Of a DNA stretch of 64,000 nt, positions 14,461 to 57,075 are shown piece by piece. The notes under the pieces were generated by a model. It saw nothing but the letters and a program-made list of their open reading frames with translations, did no database searches and was not told where the DNA came from. The stretch's first letter is position 1. Each line of letters begins with the position of its first letter. The position numbers and the translations under genes are program-made. The stretch is from Escherichia coli. GTDB lineage: Bacteria > Pseudomonadota > Gammaproteobacteria > Enterobacterales > Enterobacteriaceae. Location: the NCBI RefSeq assembly GCF_003334785.1, contig NZ_QOWV01000002.1. The stretch is one strand, 5' to 3'.

Positions 14461-14662
<202 letters not shown>

Positions 14663-14670
14663 TCTCAATA

Positions 14671-16956
14671 TCAGATCTTACATGCGCCGCTTTCGCAGCC
14701 ATCGTCCTGGATTGACGGCACCAGATCGTCTTGTGCGTCTTCAGCGCCGTCACGGGTGTTCTGATAATACAGTGTTTTGACCCCGAATTTGTAGGCGGTG
14801 AGCAGGTCTTTCAGCAACTGCTGCATCGGCACTTTTCCTGACGGGAAGCGTGACGGATCGTAGTTGGTGTTGGCAGAGATCGACTGATCGATAAATTTCT
14901 GCATGATACCCACCAGTTGCAGATAACCATCGTTACCCGGCATTTCCCACAGCAGCTCATAGGCGTCGTGCAGGTGCTCGTAGTCCGGCACCACCTGGCG
15001 CAAAATACCGTCTTTCGACGCTTTGATGCTGACGTAACCGCGCGGCGGTTCAATACCGTTAGTGGCGTTAGAGATCTGCGAAGAAGTCTCGGACGGCATC
15101 AGAGCAGAAAGCGTGGAGTTACGCAGACCGTGCGTTTTGATTGACTCACGCAGAGCTTCCCAGTCGTAATGCAGCGGCTCATTAGCGATGGTATCCAGAT
15201 CTTTCTTATAGGTATCGATCGGCAGGATCCCTTTCGCGTAAGTGGTTTCGTTAAACCACGGGCACGCGCCTTGCTCTTTCGCCAGCTCATTAGAGGCTTT
15301 CAGCAGGTAATACTGAATGGCTTCGAAGGTTTTATGCGTCAGGTTGTTGGCGCTGCCGTCGGAGTAGCGTTTACCGTGCTTCGCCAGGTAGTAAGCGAAG
15401 TTGATCACACCAATACCCAGCGTACGACGACCCATCGCTCCACGTTTGGCGGCCGGGATCGGGTAATCCTGATAATCCAGCAGCGCGTCAAGTGCACGAA
15501 CCGCCAGAATTGCCAGCTCTTCCAGTTCATCCAGGTTATTAATTGCGCCCAGGTTGAAAGCAGACAGCGTACACAGCGCGATTTCACCGTTCTCGTCGTT
15601 GACGTCGTTCAGCGGTTTGGTCGGCAGGGCTATCTCCAGGCACAGGTTAGACTGACGCACTGGCGCGATGGCCGGATCAAACGGGCTATGGGTATTGCAG
15701 TGGTCAACGTTCTGAATATAGATACGACCGGTAGACGCACGTTCCTGCATCATCAGCGAGAACAGCTCAACGGCTTTCACACGCTGCTTGCGGATGCTGT
15801 CGTCTTTCTCATATTTGGTATACAGACGTTCAAACTCTTCCTGATCGGCGAAGAACGCGTCGTACAGCCCCGGTACGTCGGACGGGCTGAACAGGGTGAT
15901 ATCTTCACCTTTCAGCAGACGGGTATACATCAGTTTGTTGATTTGTACCCCGTAGTCCATATGACGCACGCGGTTGCCTTCCACACCACGGTTGTTTTTC
16001 AACACCAGCAGGCTTTCCACTTCCAGATGCCACATCGGGTAGAACAGCGTTGCCGCACCGCCGCGCACACCGCCCTGAGAGCAGGATTTCACCGCTGTCT
16101 GGAAATGTTTGTAGAACGGAATGCAGCCGGTATGGAACGCTTCACCACCGCGAATCGGGCTACCCAGCGCACGAATACGCCCGGCGTTGATGCCGATCCC
16201 GGCACGCTGGGAAACGTATTTAACAATCGCGCTGGAGGTGGCGTTGATGGAATCCAGGCTGTCACCGCACTCGATCAGTACGCAGGAGCTGAACTGACGA
16301 GTCGGGGTACGCACGCCGGACATGATTGGCGTCGGCAGCGAAATTTTAAATGTGGAAACCGCGTCGTAAAAACGCTTCACATATTGCAGGCGCGTTTCAC
16401 GCGGGTAGTTCGAGAACAAGCACGCGGCAACTAGAATATAAAGGAACTGGGCGCTCTCATAGATTTCGCCGGTCACGCGGTTCTGTACCAGATATTTGCC
16501 TTCCAGCTGCTTAACGGCAGCATAAGAGAAGGTCATATCACGGTCGTGATCGATAAAGGTGTCCATCTGCTTGAACTCTTCTTCCGTGTAGTCTTCCAGC
16601 AGATGATTATCGTATTTGCCCATCTCGACCATTTTCACCACGTGGTCGTACAGCGCAGGCGGCTCAAACTGGCCGTAGGCTTTTTTACGCAGGTGGAAGA
16701 TCGCCAGGCGCGCGGCGAGATACTGATAATCCGGCGCATCACGGGAGATCAGGTCTGCGGCAGCCTTGATAATGGTTTCGTGGATGTCAGAGGTCTTGAT
16801 ACCGTCATAAAACTGAATGTGGGAGCGCAGCTCGACCTGGGAAATCGAAACGTTATGCAGTCCTTCTGCCGCCCAATCCAGAACGCGATGGATTTTGTCG
16901 AGATTGATGCGCTCTGTGCTACCGTCGCGCTTTGTCACCAGCAGATTCTGATTCAT
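14671..16956 (-). CDS. nrdA: Ribonucleoside-diphosphate reductase 1, alpha subunit (R1)
   Basis: 761-aa ORF with ATP-cone N-terminus ([26 protein letters not shown]…). Confidence 0.97.
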
Positions 16957-17029
16957 GTATGTCGTACCTGTTTTTGGAATTCTTTCCGCAATAGTTTCAT
17001 GCAGACTACCTGTAGTACGGGAAGCTGCT

Positions 17030-17120
17030 TAGAACACTATATATAGGGGGTATGTTTGGGATTCACTGCAAGATAGTGTGAAAATGACCCTCTTGCAAGT
17101 GCATAACTTTGTGGATAACT
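17030..17120 (-). promoter_or_regulatory. nrdAB promoter region: two NrdR-box-like palindromes and a consensus DnaA box
   Basis: acactatatataggg (17034-17048) and cactgcaagatagtgtg (17064-17080) are about 31 bp apart centre to centre; tgtggataa (17110-17118) is the reverse complement of TTATCCACA; all lie 75-165 bp upstream of the nrdA ATG. Confidence 0.5.
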
Positions 17121-17651
17121 CAGGAAGGAAAAAGTGGCTTTCGCGCACCTTAGGTCAGACAAGGTGTCCGGGAAAGTCAATGGGAAGAGAAAAATTTGTT
17201 AAAAATAACTGTTCGGCGATTTCTTGAACGGCATAATAGGTTAGATAAATTGATATAGATGGTTTATTAATCTTTTTGCTAATGATTGCAAAAATTGATC
17301 TAAGCACGAGTCATCACATAATCTGATGTATCAGTTGTGGTCAATATATAAGCGAATGTAAGAGATTGTTGATGGCGAAATGGTTGTTTTCTATTCGGTT
17401 ATTGTTAAATGCTAAGCCATTTTGTTAATTTACCTTATATTATAAGAAAATTATTCATGACTTTAATTTAGTTTAAATATAACTGATATCCCTGAAGGTT
17501 ATTAACTTGAATTATGACGCACTGATATTATTCATCAAATAATAACAAAATAGCCATTGCACCGGGTTGAACAATTTACAAAAGAAAGATATTCCATATC
17601 GTATAATGCGATTAAATACGCCGTCTTATAGAAAATGATGGTTAGATTAAT

Positions 17652-20600
17652 ATGCGGATTATCTTTCTACGCAAGGAGTATTTATCTTTACTCCCGTCAA
17701 TGATTGCATCTCTTTTCTCTGCTAACGGTGTCGCGGCGGTCACTGATTCATGCCAGGGATATGATGTCAAAGCGAGTTGTCAGGCCAGCAGGCAAAGCCT
17801 TTCAGGCATTACGCAGGACTGGAGTATCGCTGATGGGCAATGGCTGGTTTTTTCGGATATGACCAATAACGCCAGCGGTGGGGCCGTATTTTTGCAACAA
17901 GGAGCGGAATTTTCACTATTACCAGAAAATGAAACTGGAATGACTCTGTTTGCCAATAACACCGTTACAGGAGAATATAATAACGGCGGGGCCATATTTG
18001 CTAAAGAAAACTCAACGCTGAATCTTACTGATGTTATTTTTTCCGGTAACGTCGCAGGCGGCTATGGTGGCGCAATCTATTCTTCTGGTACTAACGATAC
18101 TGGTGCCGTCGATTTACGTGTCACTAACGCCATGTTTCGCAATAACATCGCTAATGATGGCAAAGGTGGCGCAATTTATACCATTAATAATGACGTTTAT
18201 TTAAGTGATGTTATTTTTGATAACAACCAGGCATATACATCAACAAGTTACAGTGATGGCGATGGCGGGGCAATCGATGTTACCGATAATAATAGCGACA
18301 GCAAGCATCCTTCAGGTTATACGATAGTAAATAACACTGCCTTTACAAATAACACTGCCGAAGGTTATGGCGGGGCGATATATACCAATAGCGTGACGGC
18401 TCCCTATCTTATTGATATTTCTGTTGATGACAGCTACAGCCAGAACGGAGGCGTGTTAGTCGATGAGAACAATAGCGCAGCAGGCTATGGAGATGGTCCT
18501 TCCTCTGCGGCGGGTGGCTTTATGTATCTCGGCTTAAGTGAAGTTACCTTTGATATTGCCGACGGAAAAACGCTGGTTATTGGCAATACAGAGAATGACG
18601 GAGCTGTTGACTCTATTGCTGGTACCGGGTTAATCACCAAAACAGGTTCCGGCGATCTGGTACTTAATGCAGATAACAATGACTTTACTGGTGAGATGCA
18701 GATTGAAAACGGTGAAGTTACCCTGGGCCGCAGCAACTCCCTGATGAATGTCGGCGATACGCATTGCCAGGACGATCCGCAAGACTGCTACGGTCTGACG
18801 ATAGGGAGTATTGATCAGTATCAGAATCAGGCTGAGCTAAACGTTGGCTCGACCCAACAAACTTTTGTGCACGCATTGACGGGCTTTCAGAATGGCACTT
18901 TAAATATCGATGCTGGTGGCAACGTTACTGTTAATCAGGGCAGTTTTGCTGGCATCATCGAAGGTGCTGGTCAGCTCACCATTGCGCAAAACGGCAGCTA
19001 CGTGCTGGCAGGGGCGCAGTCGATGGCGCTAACCGGCGATATAGTCGTTGATGATGGTGCGGTGCTTTCGCTGGAAGGCGACGCGGCAGATCTTACCGCT
19101 CTCCAGGACGATCCGCAGTCGATCGTGTTAAACGGCGGTGTGCTCGATCTCTCTGATTTCTCCACCTGGCAGAGCGGCACATCATACAACGATGGCCTTG
19201 AAGTCAGTGGCAGCAGCGGAACGGTTATCGGCAGTCAGGATGTGGTAGATCTTGCAGGTGGCGACAATTTGCATATCGGCGGCGACGGGAAAGATGGCGT
19301 CTACGTGGTGGTCGATGCGAGCGACGGGCAGGTAAGTCTGGCAAACAATAATAGTTATTTGGGCACAACACAAATCGCCTCCGGTACGCTGATGGTGAGC
19401 GACAACTCGCAGCTTGGAGATACCCACTATAACCGCCAGGTTATCTTTACCGATAAGCAACAAGAAAGCGTGATGGAGATTACCTCCGACGTTGACACGC
19501 GTTCAGATGCGGCAGGCCACGGACGTGATATTGAAATGCGCGCCGACGGTGAAGTGGCAGTTGATGCGGGGGTAGACACGCAGTGGGGCGCACTGATGGC
19601 TGACAGCAGCGGGCAGCATCAGGATGAGGGTAGCACATTGACTAAAACGGGGGCTGGTACACTGGAGCTGACCGCCAGCGGTACAACGCAGTCGGCGGTA
19701 CGTGTCGAAGAAGGCACCCTGAAAGGTGATGTTGCTGATATCCTTCCTTATGCTTCGTCACTGTGGGTTGGTGATGGGGCAACGTTCGTTACTGGCGCGG
19801 ATCAGGATATTCAGTCAATTGATGCTATTTCCAGCGGCACTATCGACATCAGCGATGGTACGGTTTTGCGCCTGACCGGGCAGGATACTTCCGTCGCCCT
19901 TAATGCCTCACTATTTAACGGCGATGGGACGCTGGTGAATGCCACCGATGGTGTGACGTTGACAGGTGAGCTTAATACCAACCTTGAAACTGACAGCCTG
20001 ACTTATCTTTCCAACGTGACGGTTAATGGCAATCTGACCAATACGTCCGGTGCGGTTAGCCTGCAAAATGGCGTCGCTGGCGATACGCTGACGGTAAACG
20101 GTGATTATACCGGCGGCGGTACGCTACTGCTCGATAGCGAATTAAACGGCGATGACTCGGTAAGCGATCAATTGGTGATGAACGGTAATACTGCTGGCAA
20201 CACAACTGTGGTGGTTAACTCCATTACAGGGATTGGTGAGCCGACATCGACAGGCATTAAAGTGGTTGATTTCGCAGCTGATCCCACGCAGTTTCAAAAC
20301 AATGCGCAGTTCAGTCTGGCAGGCAGCGGCTACGTCAATATGGGAGCGTATGACTACACGCTGGTGGAAGATAACAACGACTGGTATCTGCGATCGCAAG
20401 AAGTAACGCCGCCATCGCCACCTGATCCAGACCCGACTCCCGATCCTGATCCCACGCCGGATCCTGATCCAACACCCGACCCGGAACATACGCCTGCTTA
20501 CCAGCCGGTGTTGAATGCCAAAGTTGGCGGTTATCTCAATAACCTGCGGGCGGCAAATCAGGCGTTTATGATGGAGCGACGCGATCACGCAGGTGGCGAT

Positions 20601-21404
20601 GGTCAGACGCTGAATTTACGTGTTATCGGCGGAGATTATCATTACACAGCAGCGGGGCAACTGGCTCAACATGAAGACACTTCTACGGTGCAACTTAGCG
20701 GCGATCTGTTTAGCGGGCGCTGGGGCACGGATGGCGAGTGGATGCTTGGGATTGTTGGTGGCTACAGCGATAACCAGGGCGACAGCCGCTCGAATATGAC
20801 CGGAACTCGCGCCGATAACCAGAACCACGGTTATGCCGTTGGGCTGACATCAAGCTGGTTTCAGCACGGTAATCAGAAGCAAGGGGCCTGGCTGGATAGC
20901 TGGCTGCAATACGCGTGGTTTAGCAATGATGTTTCCGAACAAGAAGATGGCACAGATCATTACCACTCGTCGGGGATTATCGCCTCGCTGGAGGCGGGGT
21001 ATCAGTGGTTACCGGGGCGTGGTGTGGTGATTGAACCGCAGGCGCAGGTGATTTATCAGGGCGTGCAGCAGGATGATTTTACCGCCGCTAACCGTGCGCG
21101 CGTGTCACAATCGCAGGGTGATGATATTCAGACGCGGCTGGGTTTACACAGCGAATGGCGTACCGCTGTTCATGTCATACCAACATTAGATCTGAATTAT
21201 TATCACGATCCCCATTCGACGGAAATTGAAGAGGATGGCAGCACTATCAGTGACGATGCGGTGAAGCAACGGGGTGAAATAAAAGTGGGAGTCACGGGCA
21301 ATATCAGTCAGCGAGTGTCCCTGCGCGGCAGCGTGGCGTGGCAGAAAGGGAGTGATGATTTTGCCCAGACGGCAGGGTTTTTGTCGATGACGGTGAAATG
21401 GTAA
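17652..21404 (+). CDS. yfaL: Autotransporter (type Va) adhesin with pectate-lyase-like beta-helix passenger and C-terminal beta-barrel
   Basis: 1250-aa ORF; repeated GGAIY beta-helix motifs; Pro/Asp/Thr linker PPSPPDPDPTPDPDPTPDPDPTPDP (about 20404-20490); aromatic-rich C-terminal barrel ending in W. Confidence 0.9.
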   Translation: MRIIFLRKEYLSLLPSMIASLFSANGVAAVTDSCQGYDVKASCQASRQSLSGITQDWSIADGQWLVFSDMTNNASGGAVFLQQGAEFSLLPENETGMTLFANNTVTGEYNNGGAIFAKENSTLNLTDVIFSGNVAGGYGGAIYSSGTNDTGAVDLRVTNAMFRNNIANDGKGGAIYTINNDVYLSDVIFDNNQAYTSTSYSDGDGGAIDVTDNNSDSKHPSGYTIVNNTAFTNNTAEGYGGAIYTNSVTAPYLIDISVDDSYSQNGGVLVDENNSAAGYGDGPSSAAGGFMYLGLSEVTFDIADGKTLVIGNTENDGAVDSIAGTGLITKTGSGDLVLNADNNDFTGEMQIENGEVTLGRSNSLMNVGDTHCQDDPQDCYGLTIGSIDQYQNQAELNVGSTQQTFVHALTGFQNGTLNIDAGGNVTVNQGSFAGIIEGAGQLTIAQNGSYVLAGAQSMALTGDIVVDDGAVLSLEGDAADLTALQDDPQSIVLNGGVLDLSDFSTWQSGTSYNDGLEVSGSSGTVIGSQDVVDLAGGDNLHIGGDGKDGVYVVVDASDGQVSLANNNSYLGTTQIASGTLMVSDNSQLGDTHYNRQVIFTDKQQESVMEITSDVDTRSDAAGHGRDIEMRADGEVAVDAGVDTQWGALMADSSGQHQDEGSTLTKTGAGTLELTASGTTQSAVRVEEGTLKGDVADILPYASSLWVGDGATFVTGADQDIQSIDAISSGTIDISDGTVLRLTGQDTSVALNASLFNGDGTLVNATDGVTLTGELNTNLETDSLTYLSNVTVNGNLTNTSGAVSLQNGVAGDTLTVNGDYTGGGTLLLDSELNGDDSVSDQLVMNGNTAGNTTVVVNSITGIGEPTSTGIKVVDFAADPTQFQNNAQFSLAGSGYVNMGAYDYTLVEDNNDWYLRSQEVTPPSPPDPDPTPDPDPTPDPDPTPDPEHTPAYQPVLNAKVGGYLNNLRAANQAFMMERRDHAGGDGQTLNLRVIGGDYHYTAAGQLAQHEDTSTVQLSGDLFSGRWGTDGEWMLGIVGGYSDNQGDSRSNMTGTRADNQNHGYAVGLTSSWFQHGNQKQGAWLDSWLQYAWFSNDVSEQEDGTDHYHSSGIIASLEAGYQWLPGRGVVIEPQAQVIYQGVQQDDFTAANRARVSQSQGDDIQTRLGLHSEWRTAVHVIPTLDLNYYHDPHSTEIEEDGSTISDDAVKQRGEIKVGVTGNISQRVSLRGSVAWQKGSDDFAQTAGFLSMTVKW

Positions 21405-21416
21405 TCACTGTCTAGT

Positions 21417-21520
<104 letters not shown>

Positions 21521-21531
21521 AAACATCAACC

Positions 21532-22254
21532 TCACTTATTCTGCGTGTGCAGCATATAGTTCACATCCACGCCGGGGCCGAGTTTAAAAGTATTAGTGAT
21601 CGGGTTGTAATGCAGCCCAGTGATATGCCGCTCTTTTAAACTGGTCTGATCCACCCAGCCCAGCAATTCTGCCGGTTTAATAAACTTCTTCACATCATGC
21701 GTGCCTTTGGGCACCATGCGCAAAATATATTCCGCACCAACCACCGCCATCAGCCATGACTTGCCGTTGCGGTTAAGTGTCGAGAAAAAGACATCGCCGC
21801 CTGGTTTCACCAGTTGCGCACAGGCTCTGACCACTGACTGCGGATCGGGGACGTGCTCCAGCATCTCCATGCAGGTCACCACATCATACTGCCCGGCATG
21901 TTTTGCCGCGTGCTCTTCCACGGTTTCCTGCACGTAATCCACCTGAATGCCGCTTTCCAGTGCGTGCAGTTTTGCCACCTGCAATGGCTCAAAGCCCATA
22001 TCCAGACCGGTCACCGTCGCGCCTTCGCGCGCCATACTCTCGGCCAGAATGCCGCCGCCACAACCGACATCGAGCACCTTTTTGCCAAATAAACCGCCAG
22101 CACGCTCGGCAATATAGCCCAGACGCAGCGGGTTAATGCGGTGCAGCGGTTTGAACTCACCTTCCAGATCCCACCAGCGGGAGGCGACGGCTTCAAATTT
22201 AGCGATCTCTTCGTGGTCTACGTTATGGTTTACCGGCGATTTTTCGGCATTCAT
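21532..22254 (-). CDS. ubiG: Ubiquinone biosynthesis O-methyltransferase
   Basis: ORF 21532..22302; start set at [20 protein letters not shown]… (22254); SAM motif VLDVGCGGG; 240 aa. Confidence 0.93.
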
Positions 22255-22400
22255 TGGCACTTCTACTCCGTAATTGGCAAGACAAACGAGTATATCAGGC
22301 ATTGGATGTGAATAAAGCGTATAGGTTTACCTCAAACTGCGCGGCTGTGTTATAATTTGCGACCTTTGAATCCGGGATACAGTAGAGGGATAGCGGTTAG

Positions 22401-41944: not shown

Positions 41945-44794
41945 TTGAAATACCTTGCTTCTTTTCGTACAACCCTGAAAGCCTCGCGCTACATGTTCAG
42001 AGCATTGGCGTTAGTGCTCTGGCTGTTGATTGCTTTTTCATCCGTTTTTTACATCGTTAATGCGTTACATCAGCGAGAATCGGAAATTCGTCAGGAATTT
42101 AATCTGAGTTCCGATCAGGCTCAGCGCTTTATTCAACGCACCTCTGATGTGATGAAAGAGCTGAAGTACATCGCCGAAAATCGCTTATCGGCAGAAAACG
42201 GTGTGCTTTCCCCGCGTGGACGAGAAACGCAGGCGGATGTGCCTGCGTTTGAACCGCTGTTTGCCGACTCCGATTGTTCCGCAATGAGTAACACCTGGCG
42301 AGGTTCTCTGGAGTCATTGGCGTGGTTTATGCGCTACTGGCGCGATAATTTTTCTGCGGCTTACGATCTAAACCGGGTATTTTTAATCGGCAGCGATAAC
42401 CTCTGCATGGCCAATTTCGGTCTGCGTGATATGCCAGTGGAACGCGATACCGCGTTGAAAGCTTTGCATGAACGCATCAATAAATATCGAAATGCACCAC
42501 AAGATGATAGCGGCAGTAACCTCTACTGGATCAGCGAAGGTCCGCGCCCTGGCGTCGGGTATTTTTACGCGTTGACGCCAGTTTATCTGGCGAACCGGTT
42601 GCAGGCGCTTTTGGGTGTCGAGCAGACCATCCGGATGGAGAACTTTTTCTTACCGGGTACGTTGCCGATGGGGGTTACCATTCTTGATGAAAATGGTCAT
42701 ACCCTGATTTCGCTTACCGGACCAGAAAGTAAAATTAAGGGCGATCCTCGCTGGATGCAGGAACGCTCCTGGTTTGGCTATACGGAAGGGTTCCGGGAGC
42801 TGGTGCTGAAGAAAAATCTGCCACCCTCATCGCTAAGCATCGTGTATTCGGTGCCGGTTGATAAGGTGCTGGAACGCATTCGCATGTTGATCCTTAACGC
42901 AATTTTGCTGAATGTGCTTGCCGGAGCTGCATTGTTTACTCTCGCACGGATGTACGAGCGACGTATTTTCATTCCGGCGGAAAGCGACGCCCTGCGACTG
43001 GAAGAACATGAGCAGTTCAATCGCAAGATTGTCGCCTCCGCGCCAGTGGGTATCTGCATTTTGCGTACCGCTGATGGCGTCAATATTTTAAGTAACGAAC
43101 TGGCGCATACCTATCTCAATATGCTTACGCATGAGGACCGCCAACGACTGACGCAAATTATCTGTGGGCAGCAGGTCAATTTTGTTGATGTCCTGACCAG
43201 CAACAATACCAATCTGCAAATCAGCTTCGTCCATTCGCGCTATCGTAATGAAAACGTGGCCATTTGTGTGCTGGTGGATGTTTCTTCGCGCGTGAAGATG
43301 GAAGAGTCGTTGCAGGAGATGGCACAAGCAGCGGAACAGGCGAGCCAGTCAAAATCGATGTTCCTTGCCACCGTCAGTCATGAGCTGCGAACGCCGCTGT
43401 ATGGCATTATCGGTAACCTGGATCTGTTGCAAACCAAAGAGTTACCGAAAGGCGTCGATCGGCTGGTGACGGCAATGAACAACTCTTCCAGCCTGTTGTT
43501 GAAAATTATCAGCGATATTCTCGATTTCTCGAAGATTGAATCGGAACAGTTGAAGATCGAACCGCGTGAGTTTTCACCGCGTGAAGTGATGAACCACATC
43601 ACCGCCAACTATTTACCGCTGGTGGTACGCAAGCAGTTAGGCTTGTACTGCTTTATTGAACCGGATGTGCCAGTGGCCTTAAATGGCGACCCGATGCGTT
43701 TACAGCAGGTCATCTCCAACCTGTTGAGTAACGCCATAAAATTCACCGATACCGGCTGTATAGTTTTGCATGTTCGCGCGGATGGCGATTATCTCTCTAT
43801 CCGTGTTCGCGATACCGGCGTGGGGATACCGGCGAAAGAAGTGGTGCGCTTGTTTGATCCCTTCTTCCAGGTCGGAACGGGCGTACAGCGTAATTTCCAG
43901 GGGACCGGTCTGGGTCTGGCGATTTGTGAAAAACTGATCAGCATGATGGACGGCGATATCTCGGTAGATTCAGAACCGGGAATGGGCAGCCAGTTTACCG
44001 TGCGTATTCCGTTGTACGGCGCTCAGTACCCGCAGAAAAAAGGCGTGGAAGGGTTGAGTGGTAAACGCTGCTGGCTGGCGGTCCGCAATGCGTCGCTCTG
44101 TCAGTTCCTGGAAACCAGTTTGCAGCGCAGCGGCATCGTCGTTACAACATACGAAGGGCAGGAACCGACTCCCGAAGATGTGTTGATCACTGACGAGGTA
44201 GTGAGTAAAAAATGGCAGGGCAGAGCGGTAGTGACCTTCTGTCGTCGCCATATTGGTATTCCGCTGGAGAAAGCGCCAGGGGAGTGGGTACACAGTGTGG
44301 CTGCTCCGCATGAGCTACCGGCATTGTTGGCGCGTATTTATTTGATCGAGATGGAGAGCGACGATCCTGCTAACGCTCTGCCGTCAACGGACAAAGCGGT
44401 CAGCGATAATGACGATATGATGATTCTGGTCGTGGATGATCATCCGATTAACCGGCGTTTGCTGGCAGATCAGTTGGGATCGTTGGGCTATCAATGTAAA
44501 ACCGCGAATGATGGCGTCGATGCGCTTAATGTACTTAGCAAGAATCATATTGATATCGTGCTTAGCGACGTCAACATGCCAAATATGGATGGTTACCGCT
44601 TGACGCAACGCATTCGTCAGTTGGGACTGACGTTGCCGGTAATCGGAGTAACTGCTAATGCGTTGGCTGAAGAGAAGCAGCGGTGTCTGGAGTCCGGTAT
44701 GGACAGCTGCCTGTCGAAGCCGGTAACGCTGGATGTGATAAAACAGACGCTGACGTTATATGCCGAGAGGGTCAGGAAATCGCGGGATTCGTAG
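41945..44794 (+). CDS. rcsC: Hybrid sensor kinase RcsC
   Basis: 949-aa ORF with HisKA H-box (SHELRTPL) and C-terminal receiver domain. Confidence 0.95.
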   Translation: MKYLASFRTTLKASRYMFRALALVLWLLIAFSSVFYIVNALHQRESEIRQEFNLSSDQAQRFIQRTSDVMKELKYIAENRLSAENGVLSPRGRETQADVPAFEPLFADSDCSAMSNTWRGSLESLAWFMRYWRDNFSAAYDLNRVFLIGSDNLCMANFGLRDMPVERDTALKALHERINKYRNAPQDDSGSNLYWISEGPRPGVGYFYALTPVYLANRLQALLGVEQTIRMENFFLPGTLPMGVTILDENGHTLISLTGPESKIKGDPRWMQERSWFGYTEGFRELVLKKNLPPSSLSIVYSVPVDKVLERIRMLILNAILLNVLAGAALFTLARMYERRIFIPAESDALRLEEHEQFNRKIVASAPVGICILRTADGVNILSNELAHTYLNMLTHEDRQRLTQIICGQQVNFVDVLTSNNTNLQISFVHSRYRNENVAICVLVDVSSRVKMEESLQEMAQAAEQASQSKSMFLATVSHELRTPLYGIIGNLDLLQTKELPKGVDRLVTAMNNSSSLLLKIISDILDFSKIESEQLKIEPREFSPREVMNHITANYLPLVVRKQLGLYCFIEPDVPVALNGDPMRLQQVISNLLSNAIKFTDTGCIVLHVRADGDYLSIRVRDTGVGIPAKEVVRLFDPFFQVGTGVQRNFQGTGLGLAICEKLISMMDGDISVDSEPGMGSQFTVRIPLYGAQYPQKKGVEGLSGKRCWLAVRNASLCQFLETSLQRSGIVVTTYEGQEPTPEDVLITDEVVSKKWQGRAVVTFCRRHIGIPLEKAPGEWVHSVAAPHELPALLARIYLIEMESDDPANALPSTDKAVSDNDDMMILVVDDHPINRRLLADQLGSLGYQCKTANDGVDALNVLSKNHIDIVLSDVNMPNMDGYRLTQRIRQLGLTLPVIGVTANALAEEKQRCLESGMDSCLSKPVTLDVIKQTLTLYAERVRKSRDS

Positions 44795-44993
<199 letters not shown>

Positions 44994-45660: not shown

Positions 45661-48333
45661 CTACAGCAAGCTCTTGACATAACTGTCAATGTCGCTGATG
45701 TATTTTTCTATTCCTGGAACATCCTTCTCACGAATCAGATGTTCCAGCGTTTCACATAACTGCTTGCCGGGTACCAGATTTAGCATGGCAAATACGCCTT
45801 TAAGACGATGAGCCGTTTGGGCTAACGCAGCAAAGTCACTGGTTGCTGCTTCAGTATACAGCCTCTTAACATCATCCGGTACTGTGTCTACAAAGAGCGC
45901 ATAATAGCCGCTGGCATGGAGTTGCGCATTTTCATCTCCGCCCAGAGGCGATTCTGTCACCTCTTCCTGCGCCAGTTGCACTTCAATTAATTGTAAGACC
46001 GCTTCCTGCATAGCGTTGCTCATATTGAAGTTGACGCACAATTGACCAGGCCCAATTTCCCGTACGCCAGACTCATCATCGCTTAAAAGCAAGCCAGAGG
46101 CAGTAAGATTAGACGGATTATCCGTTAAAAAGATATCATAATCTTGACTAATTAATCTTTCATCGGGTGTGATACAGGTTGCACCCCAATTTTCTAACTG
46201 GCGAGTGACAATATTCCGAATTTCTGCCGAAGTAACATCCACCATTACGCAGACATCATCCAGTAAACGCTCTTCTTCCTCTTCAACTTCCGGGTCAGCT
46301 GCGAGCATTTTGATATGCACAGAGTAGCGTGTACCAAGCCCATCCCGCGTTTTGATGTTTAAATGACCGCCCAGTTTACGTGCCAGTTGATCGCTCAGCC
46401 AGAATGCCAGCGGGTCCGCCTTGCCATAGCGATCGTTTTGGGTCTGGTTGATAAACGGGAAGTGCAAATTATCCATTTCATGAATACTTACGCCTTCTCC
46501 CGTGTCCAGAATGCGGAACGTCAGGCGGTCTTCGGAGGACTCATCCTGATCAACCTCAAGGGTGATTTTTCCCAATTGCGTTGAGGTCACGGCATATTGC
46601 ATCAGTAGCAGCAAAATACGTCGTAAGGCATCGCGATCGCCGCGGCGCATATCGTGTGCTTTCAGATGATTGTTAATCAGCAGTTGCAGACCTTTACGCT
46701 TGATGGCAGGCAACACTGAAGGCACAACTTCATCAATTAAATCCTGCACGGAGAACAGCACCGTCTCACTTTTCCAGCTATCATCCGCAAGCATGTTCGC
46801 TAACTGTATTTCATCAACCAGCCGCACCAGCACATCTGCCTGATTCGCCAGTTGTTTGCTTTCCGGGGCGTTGAGTTTAGCCGCGCTCTCCGCCAGGGAC
46901 TGTGCGGGTTCTTTCAGCGCATCGCCAATGTTTTTCATAAAGATCATCCGCCCCTGCTGGTTTTTCTCATACAGACGCTGCGCCTGCTTGAGTTTCTTGT
47001 TTACCAGCACTTCGCGATCCTGATCGCGAATAATGAAAATTTGTGTGCGCGGCGCGACCTGGCTGCGGAACATGCGGATCTCATACAGCTCGTTATTGAT
47101 CGTCGCCTGAATAATCCCCTGATGCTGTTCCGCCATGGTGGTGATGTTTTGCAGATTCAAATGCGGCAGCAAATGATCGGCAATTTTGTTACTTATGACA
47201 GTGCGGTTCGATTCCTGATCGTGAACCAGCAGGCCGAGCGGCAGCAGTGAGACTATCTCTTCATTGATTGCCCGTAAAATGCGCAATTCGTTATTGACCG
47301 CCGTGCTGGGGACGTTTTCTGTACTGCGGCTGGAGAAATGGCGGAATGTGGTATAGCCAAATAACGCCAGCGCCAGCAAACCGATGTTCAGCAGCAGTGG
47401 CAGCAGAATGTTTTGCAACGTATCCAGCAATAAGGTGCCATAAGGAACCTGCCAGACCAGGCGCATATCGGTAGAGTTGAGTGCCGAGGAGATTTCAATC
47501 TTCGTACTGTTAAAGTGGATACTGACGCTATCCGTCCCTTCTTTCTCATTATCATTGTTTCCCGTTGCCGTCGCGTCTGGCTCAAGGCGGAAACTGTCCA
47601 GCGGCATACCCGGTGGGATCAAATCATTAATCGGCAGATCAAAAGCCACGACCGTTGCCAGATGTCCTGGCTGGTTAAAGGTAGTACGCAATGTAAAGTA
47701 ATGACCGTTCTGCCAGGCCAGGCGGCGCATGTTAGAAAAGCTTTCGCGTTCATCGAGGGCGTTGGCCTGTTGCAACATCTCTGCACGACGTGAATCAACA
47801 ATGTCGCTGACGGTCGATTCTTTAAATCCGGAGGTGAGATCTTTAAGGGGTAGGGTTGAGATCAGCACCAGACTGTTATCCTGACCATTCAGGTAATACA
47901 TCGACCACGGTACATTTTCTGCGCCCCACAATGTATCCAGATAAGTGGACATCCGCTGAGTCATCTCAAGCGTTGAGTTGTCGTGAGAGCCAAAGATTAA
48001 CGCTTCCGTTTTGCGGCGTGGTTTCTCCAGATAGTAGACATCCTGTTTCAGGCGCGTCTCTTGTAAACCTTCGCCGGAGGAGGGGGAGGTCGTCGCGGCA
48101 ATGTTGTCGTAGATCTGCCAGGTCACGTAACGCCAGTTATCGACGCGCTTTTGGATAGCATGGGTAATGTCGACAATCTGGTAACTTTTATCTTTCAGCC
48201 AGGCGTTAACGGCGCTTTGTACCATTACACCCATCGTCACCAGTAACACAATGATCAACAGTAAAAAGAAGCGGGTAATGCTCCCCGGTAGGAGTGAAAA
48301 GCGGGTCGTGGCCGTTGTCTCTTTCTGACGCAT
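45661..48333 (-). CDS. rcsD: Phosphotransfer intermediate protein RcsD (YojN)
   Basis: 890-aa ORF; degenerate kinase-like core plus C-terminal HPt domain. Confidence 0.93.
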   Translation of the reverse strand: MRQKETTATTRFSLLPGSITRFFLLLIIVLLVTMGVMVQSAVNAWLKDKSYQIVDITHAIQKRVDNWRYVTWQIYDNIAATTSPSSGEGLQETRLKQDVYYLEKPRRKTEALIFGSHDNSTLEMTQRMSTYLDTLWGAENVPWSMYYLNGQDNSLVLISTLPLKDLTSGFKESTVSDIVDSRRAEMLQQANALDERESFSNMRRLAWQNGHYFTLRTTFNQPGHLATVVAFDLPINDLIPPGMPLDSFRLEPDATATGNNDNEKEGTDSVSIHFNSTKIEISSALNSTDMRLVWQVPYGTLLLDTLQNILLPLLLNIGLLALALFGYTTFRHFSSRSTENVPSTAVNNELRILRAINEEIVSLLPLGLLVHDQESNRTVISNKIADHLLPHLNLQNITTMAEQHQGIIQATINNELYEIRMFRSQVAPRTQIFIIRDQDREVLVNKKLKQAQRLYEKNQQGRMIFMKNIGDALKEPAQSLAESAAKLNAPESKQLANQADVLVRLVDEIQLANMLADDSWKSETVLFSVQDLIDEVVPSVLPAIKRKGLQLLINNHLKAHDMRRGDRDALRRILLLLMQYAVTSTQLGKITLEVDQDESSEDRLTFRILDTGEGVSIHEMDNLHFPFINQTQNDRYGKADPLAFWLSDQLARKLGGHLNIKTRDGLGTRYSVHIKMLAADPEVEEEEERLLDDVCVMVDVTSAEIRNIVTRQLENWGATCITPDERLISQDYDIFLTDNPSNLTASGLLLSDDESGVREIGPGQLCVNFNMSNAMQEAVLQLIEVQLAQEEVTESPLGGDENAQLHASGYYALFVDTVPDDVKRLYTEAATSDFAALAQTAHRLKGVFAMLNLVPGKQLCETLEHLIREKDVPGIEKYISDIDSYVKSLL

Positions 48334-48644
48334 TCGTGTTTATGACCTGTTAAAACTTCGCGAAGTGATAGAGCAGTATAAAGGGTACAGTGTGAAATTC
48401 CAGACTCTTACCTGATTGATGATTCTCTATTCTCCCGTGATATTTATCATCCTGCATTGGGGGAAATAGATGTACAAGCGCCATTTTGCTGTACAAATAA
48501 CCTACAAAAAGCCCAACAAAAATAATTGCAAATAAACAAAGATTGCTGGAAATTATGCGGATGTTAATTATTTGTGAAATAGTTAACAAGCGTTATAGTT
48601 TTTCTGTGGTAGCACAGAATAATGAAAAGTGTGTAAAGAAGGGT

Positions 48645-48737
48645 AAAAAAAACCGAATGCGAGGCATCCGGTTGAAATAGGGGTAAACAGACATTCAGAA
48701 ATGAATGACGGTAATAAATAAAGTTAATGATGATAGC
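48645..48737 (-). ncRNA. micF: micF antisense small RNA
   Basis: The minus strand reads gctatcatcattaactttatttattaccgtcattcatttctgaatgtctgtttacccctatttcaaccggatgcctcgcattcgg followed by T8; matches micF as I recall it, including the terminal stem-loop and U-tract; divergent from ompC. Confidence 0.75.
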
Positions 48738-48892
48738 GGGAGTTATTCTAGTTGCGAGTGAAGGTTTTGTTTTGACATTCAGTGCTGTCAAATACTTAAG
48801 AATAAGTTATTGATTTTAACCTTGAATTATTATTGCTTGATGTTAGGTGCTTATTTCGCCATTCCGCAATAATCTTAAAAAGTTCCCTTGCA

Positions 48893-48952
48893 TTTACATT
48901 TTGAAACATCTATAGCGATAAATGAAACATCTTAAAAGTTTTAGTATCATAT
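48893..48952 (+). promoter_or_regulatory. Three tandem 20-bp OmpR boxes upstream of the ompC promoter
   Basis: tttacattttgaaacatcta / tagcgataaatgaaacatct / taaaagttttagtatcatat, three phased 20-mers each containing the GAAACAT/ACAT core, followed by a gagaat -10-like element. Confidence 0.6.
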
Positions 48953-49056
48953 TCGTGTTGGATTATTCTGCATTTTTGGGGAGAATGGACTTGCCGACTG
49001 ATTAATGAGGGTTAATCAGTATGCAGTGGCATAAAAAAGCAAATAAAGGCATATAA

Positions 49057-50175
<1,119 letters not shown>

Positions 50176-56713: not shown

Positions 56714-57075
56714 TGATGCGCCACATCCGGCATGGTATGCCGGATGTGGCGTATGCTGATAAGACGCGCCAGCGTCGCATCAGGCAACCGGCTCGGGCGT
56801 TAGATGTTGGATGCGGCGTAACCGCCTTATCCAACCTACGGGGTGGAGCACTTCACAGCGGTGTAGGCCTGATAAGACGCGCCAGCGTCGCATCAGGCAA
56901 CCGGCTTGGGCGTTAGATGTCGGATGCGGCGTAACCGCCTTATCCGACCTACGGGGTGGAGCACTTCACAGCGGTGTAGGCCTGATAAGACGCGCCAGCG
57001 TCGCATCAGGCAACCGGCTCGGGCGTTGGATGTCGGATGCGGCGTGACCGCCTTGTCTGACCTACGGGGTGCCGC
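56714..57075. repeat. Terminator hairpin followed by three tandem REP/BIME units of about 95-100 bp
   Basis: Perfect hairpin gcgccacatccggcat-ggt-atgccggatgtggcg (56718-56751), then three near-identical copies of gataagacgcgccagcgtcgcatcaggcaaccggc…gatgcggcgtaaccgccttatcc…acggggtggagcacttcacagcggtgtaggcct; these produce the spurious overlapping ORFs 56713..57274. Confidence 0.8.

Follow-up and report, generated by a model that had tools for sequence, protein, structure and literature searches.

The AT-rich tract immediately 5' of yfaL (17236-17651) is very probably a regulatory region that was acquired together with this adhesin gene and acts as an H-NS platform silencing it, the nrdAB promoter at the other end of the same spacer being a separate unit. 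The AT-rich, H-NS-bound promoter island of yfaL is already known from published work. What is new here is the boundary of the insertion near 17231-17236, the retention of length and composition in the tract without conservation of its sequence, a quantified in-frame polymorphism of the YfaL linker, and evidence that the annotated ORF ypaB is probably not a real gene.

The stretch of E. coli DNA analysed, hereafter the window, is 64 kb long and is oriented in reverse to MG1655. Gene coordinates (Table 1) come from an ORF listing and from the RefSeq annotation of a genome 100% identical to the window, and the genes follow one another in the order nrdA, ypaB, yfaL and ubiG. The divergent nrdA-yfaL spacer, put at about 700 bp in the first-pass annotation, measures 695 bp from the nrdA start codon, which ends at 16956 on the minus strand, to the yfaL ATG at 17652. 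A spacer query of 801 bp found a match in 5,426 of 5,426 complete E. coli genomes, with at least 80% of the query matched in 5,424 of them.

Table 1 Features of the nrdA-yfaL-ubiG region (positions in the window)
Feature	Position	Strand	Description and basis
nrdA	14671..16956	-	ORF listing and RefSeq annotation
Divergent nrdA-yfaL spacer	16957..17651	.	695 bp, 33.7% G+C
nrdAB promoter and upstream regulatory region	17063..17231	-	part still aligning with yfaL-less genera
nrdA -10, TATCTT	17070-17075	-	read from sequence
ypaB	17084..17227	+	47-codon ORF antisense to nrdA promoter; RefSeq annotation
nrdA -35, TTGCAA	17093-17098	-	read from sequence
DnaA boxes, two	17098-17106, 17111-17119		read from sequence
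HusR box, CAGACAAGGTGTCCGG	17156-17171		published box (PMC12844172)
Insertion-specific AT-rich tract, H-NS-bound 'promoter island' 5' of yfaL	17236..17651	+	416 bp, 28.1% G+C; composition, alignment, literature
Promoter-like site, TTGATC-16-CATAAT	17295..17322	+	consensus scan; same as the yfaL promoter prediction of Shimada et al. 2014 (PMC3946193)
Proximal promoter-like element, TTTACA-16-TATCGT	17575..17607	+	overlaps perfect TATAAT at 17602-17607
yfaL (ehaC)	17652..21404	+	1250-residue AIDA-I-type (type Va) autotransporter adhesin; NCBIfam and Pfam
Proline-rich (PDPDPT)n linker, TPPSPPDPDPTPDPDPTPDPDPTPDPEHTP	20406..20495	+	residues 919-948; (PDPDPT)3-type
Convergent yfaL-ubiG spacer	21405..21531	.	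REP-like palindromes; far end of insertion
ubiG	21532..22302	-	ORF listing and RefSeq annotation

The identity of the adhesin is clear from the NCBIfam equivalog NF007285 ("AIDA-I family autotransporter adhesin YfaL/EhaC"), which matches residues 1-1250 of 1250 with 2807.9 bits against a cutoff of 1459. A Pfam search covering residues 51-1250 placed an AC_1 autochaperone domain (PF18883, E=2.4e-18) at about 794-904 and the beta-barrel domain (PF03797, Autotransporter, E=2.8e-34) at about 989-1228.

The base composition of the spacer stands out sharply. Segment 17121-17651 has 31.5% G+C (28.5% for 17228-17651), compared to a mean of 51.9% (sd 4.3) for all 531-bp segments of the 64 kb, and it is the most AT-rich stretch of that length in the window, the equally low segments all starting between 17120 and 17221; the first-pass description of the yfaL-proximal 500 bp or so as strongly AT-rich relative to its flanks is thus borne out. 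TpA steps make up 10.4% of the region (mean 4.3%) and lie, together with A/T tracts, near the window maximum. A consensus scan found nine sigma-70-like sites, as against 3.2 +/- 1.9 in shuffles of 16800-17800, so that the tract shows two of the traits of promoter islands, a G+C content far below average over several hundred bp and an excess of overlapping promoter-like sites. Low G+C continues into the first 350 codons of yfaL (44.8%; GC3 40.9%). The tract with the second lowest G+C in the window, 48128-49300 (minimum 32.4%), separates rcsD, micF and ompC from one another, MicF lying at 48645-48738 (minus strand); the ompC/micF spacer is tagged HNS in the same SELEX table as yfaL/nrdA (PMC3946193).

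Occupancy of the tract by H-NS has been published. Promoter island 2342143_534, listed as yfaL(-)/ypaB(-) in Table 1 of Panyukov & Ozoline 2013 (PMC3661553) as one of 78, coincides almost exactly with 17121-17651 (531 bp). It carries the H-NS code 'A', i.e. bound in all compiled ChIP studies (Grainger, Kahramanoglou, Oshima), and is flagged as foreign-gene-associated by three predictors (PMC3661553). Likewise, the yfaL/nrdA spacer is tagged 'HNS' in a genomic SELEX paper (Shimada et al. 2014, PMC3946193). Together with the insertion setting described below, these data support the first-pass proposal that the locus has the pattern of an H-NS-silenced surface adhesin, silencing itself being what such occupancy would be expected to bring about; the accessible literature yielded no report of yfaL de-repression in hns mutants. 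In the tract, the high-affinity H-NS motif TCGATAAATT is no more frequent than expected from base composition, with 2 sites at up to 2 mismatches vs. 1.5 +/- 1.2 in shuffles, the best of them being TAGATAAATT at 17242. This motif is not required for H-NS binding.

We propose that the very low G+C content and the high frequency of TpA steps would make the tract a binding platform for H-NS, which would coat the tract and probably extend over the low-G+C first ~1 kb of yfaL as well. Such coating would keep the many promoter-like sites largely silent, and production of YfaL would depend on counter-silencers or on particular conditions that lift the repression. Two blocks are conserved in position across alleles, one near TTGAT (17295) and the other a TTTACA/ATTACA at 17575 followed some 16 nt later by a -10-like hexamer; the latter, 17575-17607, is a candidate for the core yfaL promoter. 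Regulation of yfaL by GadE and GadX has been reported (PMC4918353), and the phenotypes of YfaL in K-12 were obtained with a constitutive promoter placed upstream of the gene (PMC3764049). Since deletion of yfaL lowers the adherence of O157:H7 to HEp-2 cells (PMC7864753), the gene cannot be fully silent in every strain and condition.

We compared 80 Enterobacterales loci around nrdA in which NrdA, YfaL, UbiG and GyrA were located by tblastn. In 70 of the 80, the order is gyrA-ubiG-nrdA without yfaL, ubiG ending only a few hundred bp upstream of the nrdA ATG (343-526 bp in 17 measured yfaL-less loci). Only five loci have yfaL between ubiG and nrdA, and these are scattered over an Escherichia, E. 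albertii, Pseudocitrobacter (68% YfaL protein identity), the Enterobacteriaceae strain RIT691 (54%) and Rahnella bonaserana (52%), while four other Rahnella species are without it; in the other five loci neither arrangement is seen, in most cases owing to too short a contig or to rearrangement of the region. yfaL and its AT-rich tract therefore form an insertion of about 4-4.2 kb between ubiG and nrdA, which, to judge from this distribution, was either horizontally acquired or patchily retained. It is in such a setting that silencing of foreign DNA by H-NS would be expected. At its far end the insertion holds REP/BIME-like palindromes at 21420-21510, and similar REP-like sequence occurs in the ubiG-nrdA spacers of Citrobacter youngae and Kluyvera. 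Six Rfam matches to naRNA4, a REP-derived nucleoid-associated RNA, fall elsewhere in the window (14544-14614, 44794-44984 and 56754-57062), one of them in the nrdB-nrdA gap.

The near end of the insertion can be placed by alignment. Homology with yfaL-less genera (Citrobacter, Enterobacter, Kluyvera and others) stops near 17231, and up to that point they have in common with the window the NrdR boxes, the core promoter, a GTCAAT block and GCTGATTTCTT. For this reason we take 16957 to about 17231 as the regulatory region of nrdAB, and 17236-17651 as part of the yfaL insertion. The nrdA-proximal part of the spacer (~275 bp), with its DnaA, NrdR and HusR sites, is on sequence evidence the promoter of nrdAB and not that of yfaL. 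The nrdA -10 and -35 elements, the DnaA boxes and the HusR box all lie within or adjoin ypaB, in agreement with the published statements that 'ypaB contains the promoter of nrdA' (PMC6242692) and that HusR binds within ypaB and activates nrdAB (PMC12844172).

That nrdAB is controlled from this shared, divergent spacer raises the alternative that the AT-rich tract primarily serves the essential nrdAB genes from upstream, through Fis, IHF or AT-rich elements for cell-cycle control, with yfaL incidental to it. Besides HusR, the factors Fis, DnaA, IciA, H-NS and NrdR act on nrdAB, and upstream cis elements are known (PMC4009431, PMC12176259). However, yfaL-less genera run nrdA from spacers of 340-530 bp and 37-45% G+C without any such tract, homology ends where the tract begins, and no other part of the spacer is as poorly conserved within E. 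coli. Comparison of the window, which is of phylogroup A type, with the phylogroup B2 strain JJ1886 gave 93-99% identity for 17000-17250 and 77-87% for 17350-17600 (77-83% for 17400-17600), with 96% for 17600-17700 and 97.9% for nrdA. We consider this alternative improbable. Since repression by H-NS is also reported for nrdAB (review PMC4009431), the tract may nevertheless not serve yfaL alone.

What is conserved in the tract is its size and composition. In four lineages (Escherichia lineages and Pseudocitrobacter) the insertion-specific tract keeps a length of 410-416 bp and a G+C content of 28-29.5%, whereas its sequence is only 62-64% identical to that of the window, which points to selection on composition rather than on sequence. 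A constraint of this kind would be expected of a platform for a coating protein and not of a coding or structured-RNA element. In the two other carriers, RIT691 and R. bonaserana, the spacer is less AT-rich (42-43% G+C). In one strain (NZ_AP045766.1), an IS1 lies in the tract at about 17624, just 5' of the yfaL ATG, and yfaL is annotated there as a pseudogene with an internal stop.

The length of the spacer could also be explained by a hidden gene, whether for a small RNA or for a small protein (ypaB or some other short ORF). Most E. coli carry an annotated ypaB, its mRNA is reported to be AZT-induced in a HusR-dependent manner, and the annotation of phage P1 includes a homologous ORF, upfO. 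On the other hand, Rfam models gave no hit in 16500-18200 even at E<=1, nor any in the spacer at gathering score, neither the spacer nor the yfaL-ubiG gap contains a terminator-like site, and the other ORFs of the tract have at most 24 codons and fall in a poorly conserved segment. In the B2 strain JJ1886 the ypaB start codon is CTG and RefSeq annotates no ypaB, NCBIfam has no family for it, and YpaB and its P1 counterpart UpfO are less alike as protein than as DNA. A hidden gene is accordingly very unlikely to account for the spacer, and with its ATG lost in B2 and its P1 homologue diverging more as protein, ypaB is unlikely to encode a real protein; most likely it is an accidental reading frame across the nrdA promoter. 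The small ORF with an ATG at 17180 and 15 codons, which the first-pass annotation had noted in the spacer, does exist, but it is not unannotatable as was supposed there, since it is the annotated ypaB from Met33 onward, in the same frame. A 13-nt inverted repeat flanking the yfaL start (17583-17595 / 17656-17668) was considered as an RNA structure and rejected because it is disrupted in B2 without compensating changes, and other repeats in the spacer are only short, chance-level matches.

The nrdA promoter has relatives outside the chromosome. Segment 17073-17213, which holds the core promoter, the DnaA boxes, the HusR box and most of ypaB, has a counterpart of 82-95% identity in P1/P7-type phages and phage-plasmids, found at 235 plasmid places among E. 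coli genomes and in 15 phage records, the copy of the Escherichia-type nrdA promoter being 115-140 bp long in the P1/P7 phage-plasmids. Old P1 records already carry the annotations 'nrdA-like promoter' and 'dnaA box', with upfO in the ypaB frame. Among chromosomes, the promoter region 16957-17231 is common to Escherichia, E. albertii and Pseudocitrobacter (82-89% identical to the window), while in Citrobacter, Kluyvera and RIT691 the same region is only about 67% identical despite equal identity of the nrdA coding sequence (86-88%). A distinct type of nrdA promoter, in which the DnaA boxes appear to lie upstream of the -35 element and not in the leader, co-occurs with Escherichia-type yfaL. 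It is conceivable, though we hold it to be doubtful, that the gain of yfaL and of an H-NS-binding tract rewired the control of the essential nrdAB genes in Escherichia; if this were true, the adjacent H-NS platform could couple silencing of the adhesin to dNTP supply.

The second part of the first-pass annotation concerned YfaL itself, where a Pro-Asp-Thr repeat at about 20404-20490 was said to link passenger and barrel and to be a possible source of length differences between strains. The linker is present at nearly this position, between the AC_1 autochaperone domain and the beta-barrel domain, and Tandem Repeats Finder reports a period-18 array at 20421-20485. Its length does vary: a 301-bp query matched 5,420 genomes, and in an evenly spaced sample of 59 full-length matches about one third differ from the window, with -18 bp in 13, +6 bp in three, -24 bp in two and -15 bp in one, the other 40 showing no difference. 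Six fetched examples, together with the alleles of B2, other Escherichia, E. albertii, Pseudocitrobacter, RIT691 and Rahnella, place every indel inside the Pro/Asp/Thr repeat, between the invariant motifs DWYLRSQ and PAYQPVLNAK. All variants are in frame and leave linkers of 23-33 residues in E. coli, and longer or shorter ones in other genera. The linker would act as a flexible proline-rich spacer joining the passenger and autochaperone to the barrel and would gain or lose units of 6-18 bp in frame.

As a short tandem coding repeat of strain-dependent length, the linker might also be taken for a contingency locus, switching YfaL on and off by phase variation. In such loci changes in repeat number shift the reading frame or the promoter spacing, but here the length differences are all multiples of 3 bp and leave the frame intact, and the units are long (6-18 bp) and imperfect (70-73% matches), neither a homopolymer nor a short perfect repeat. 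Phase variation is therefore a most improbable reading, and the variation is, as far as the aligned alleles tell, ordinary in-frame repeat slippage. The passenger (18252-20400) shows very high allelic divergence in E. coli, with 76% DNA identity between the window and JJ1886 compared to 94% for the barrel, and another Escherichia genome labelled E. coli has a YfaL with only 78% protein identity.

The locus is a textbook-style example of an acquired adhesin gene whose AT-rich 5' region is coated by H-NS, and as such it carries little weight beyond confirmation. The details are useful for annotation, for engineering of the yfaL site and for surface display with YfaL, and of all aspects of the locus only its proximity to the nrdAB promoter might repay experiment.

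Compared with known systems, the locus does not differ from other E. coli promoter islands, being itself a listed member (PMC3661553) that is AT-rich, promoter-dense, foreign-linked and bound by H-NS. It also resembles the H-NS-silenced cryptic adhesins of K-12, such as ycgV (whose island is in the same table; PMC3661553), other autotransporters and the chaperone-usher fimbriae, in being a foreign adhesin of low G+C content with an H-NS-bound AT-rich 5' region whose phenotypes in K-12 appear with an artificial promoter. In contrast to these, the yfaL tract abuts the promoter of essential genes, nrdAB, which is itself reportedly modulated by H-NS. As a protein, YfaL has the signal peptide, repeat-rich passenger, AC_1 domain and 12-strand barrel domain of type Va autotransporters like AIDA-I, MisL, ShdA and EhaC, but unlike other AIDA-I-type autotransporters it has passenger alleles that diverge to an unusual degree within E. 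coli (phylogroups A and B2 share 76% DNA identity there, compared to 98% in nrdA). The PQP and GGxxP regions of pertactin in B. pertussis are polymorphic proline-rich repeats, and the YfaL linker is similar to them in being rich in proline, near the junction of passenger and barrel, and variable in repeat number in frame; it differs in its small range in E. coli (23-33 residues) and in giving no evidence here for immune selection.
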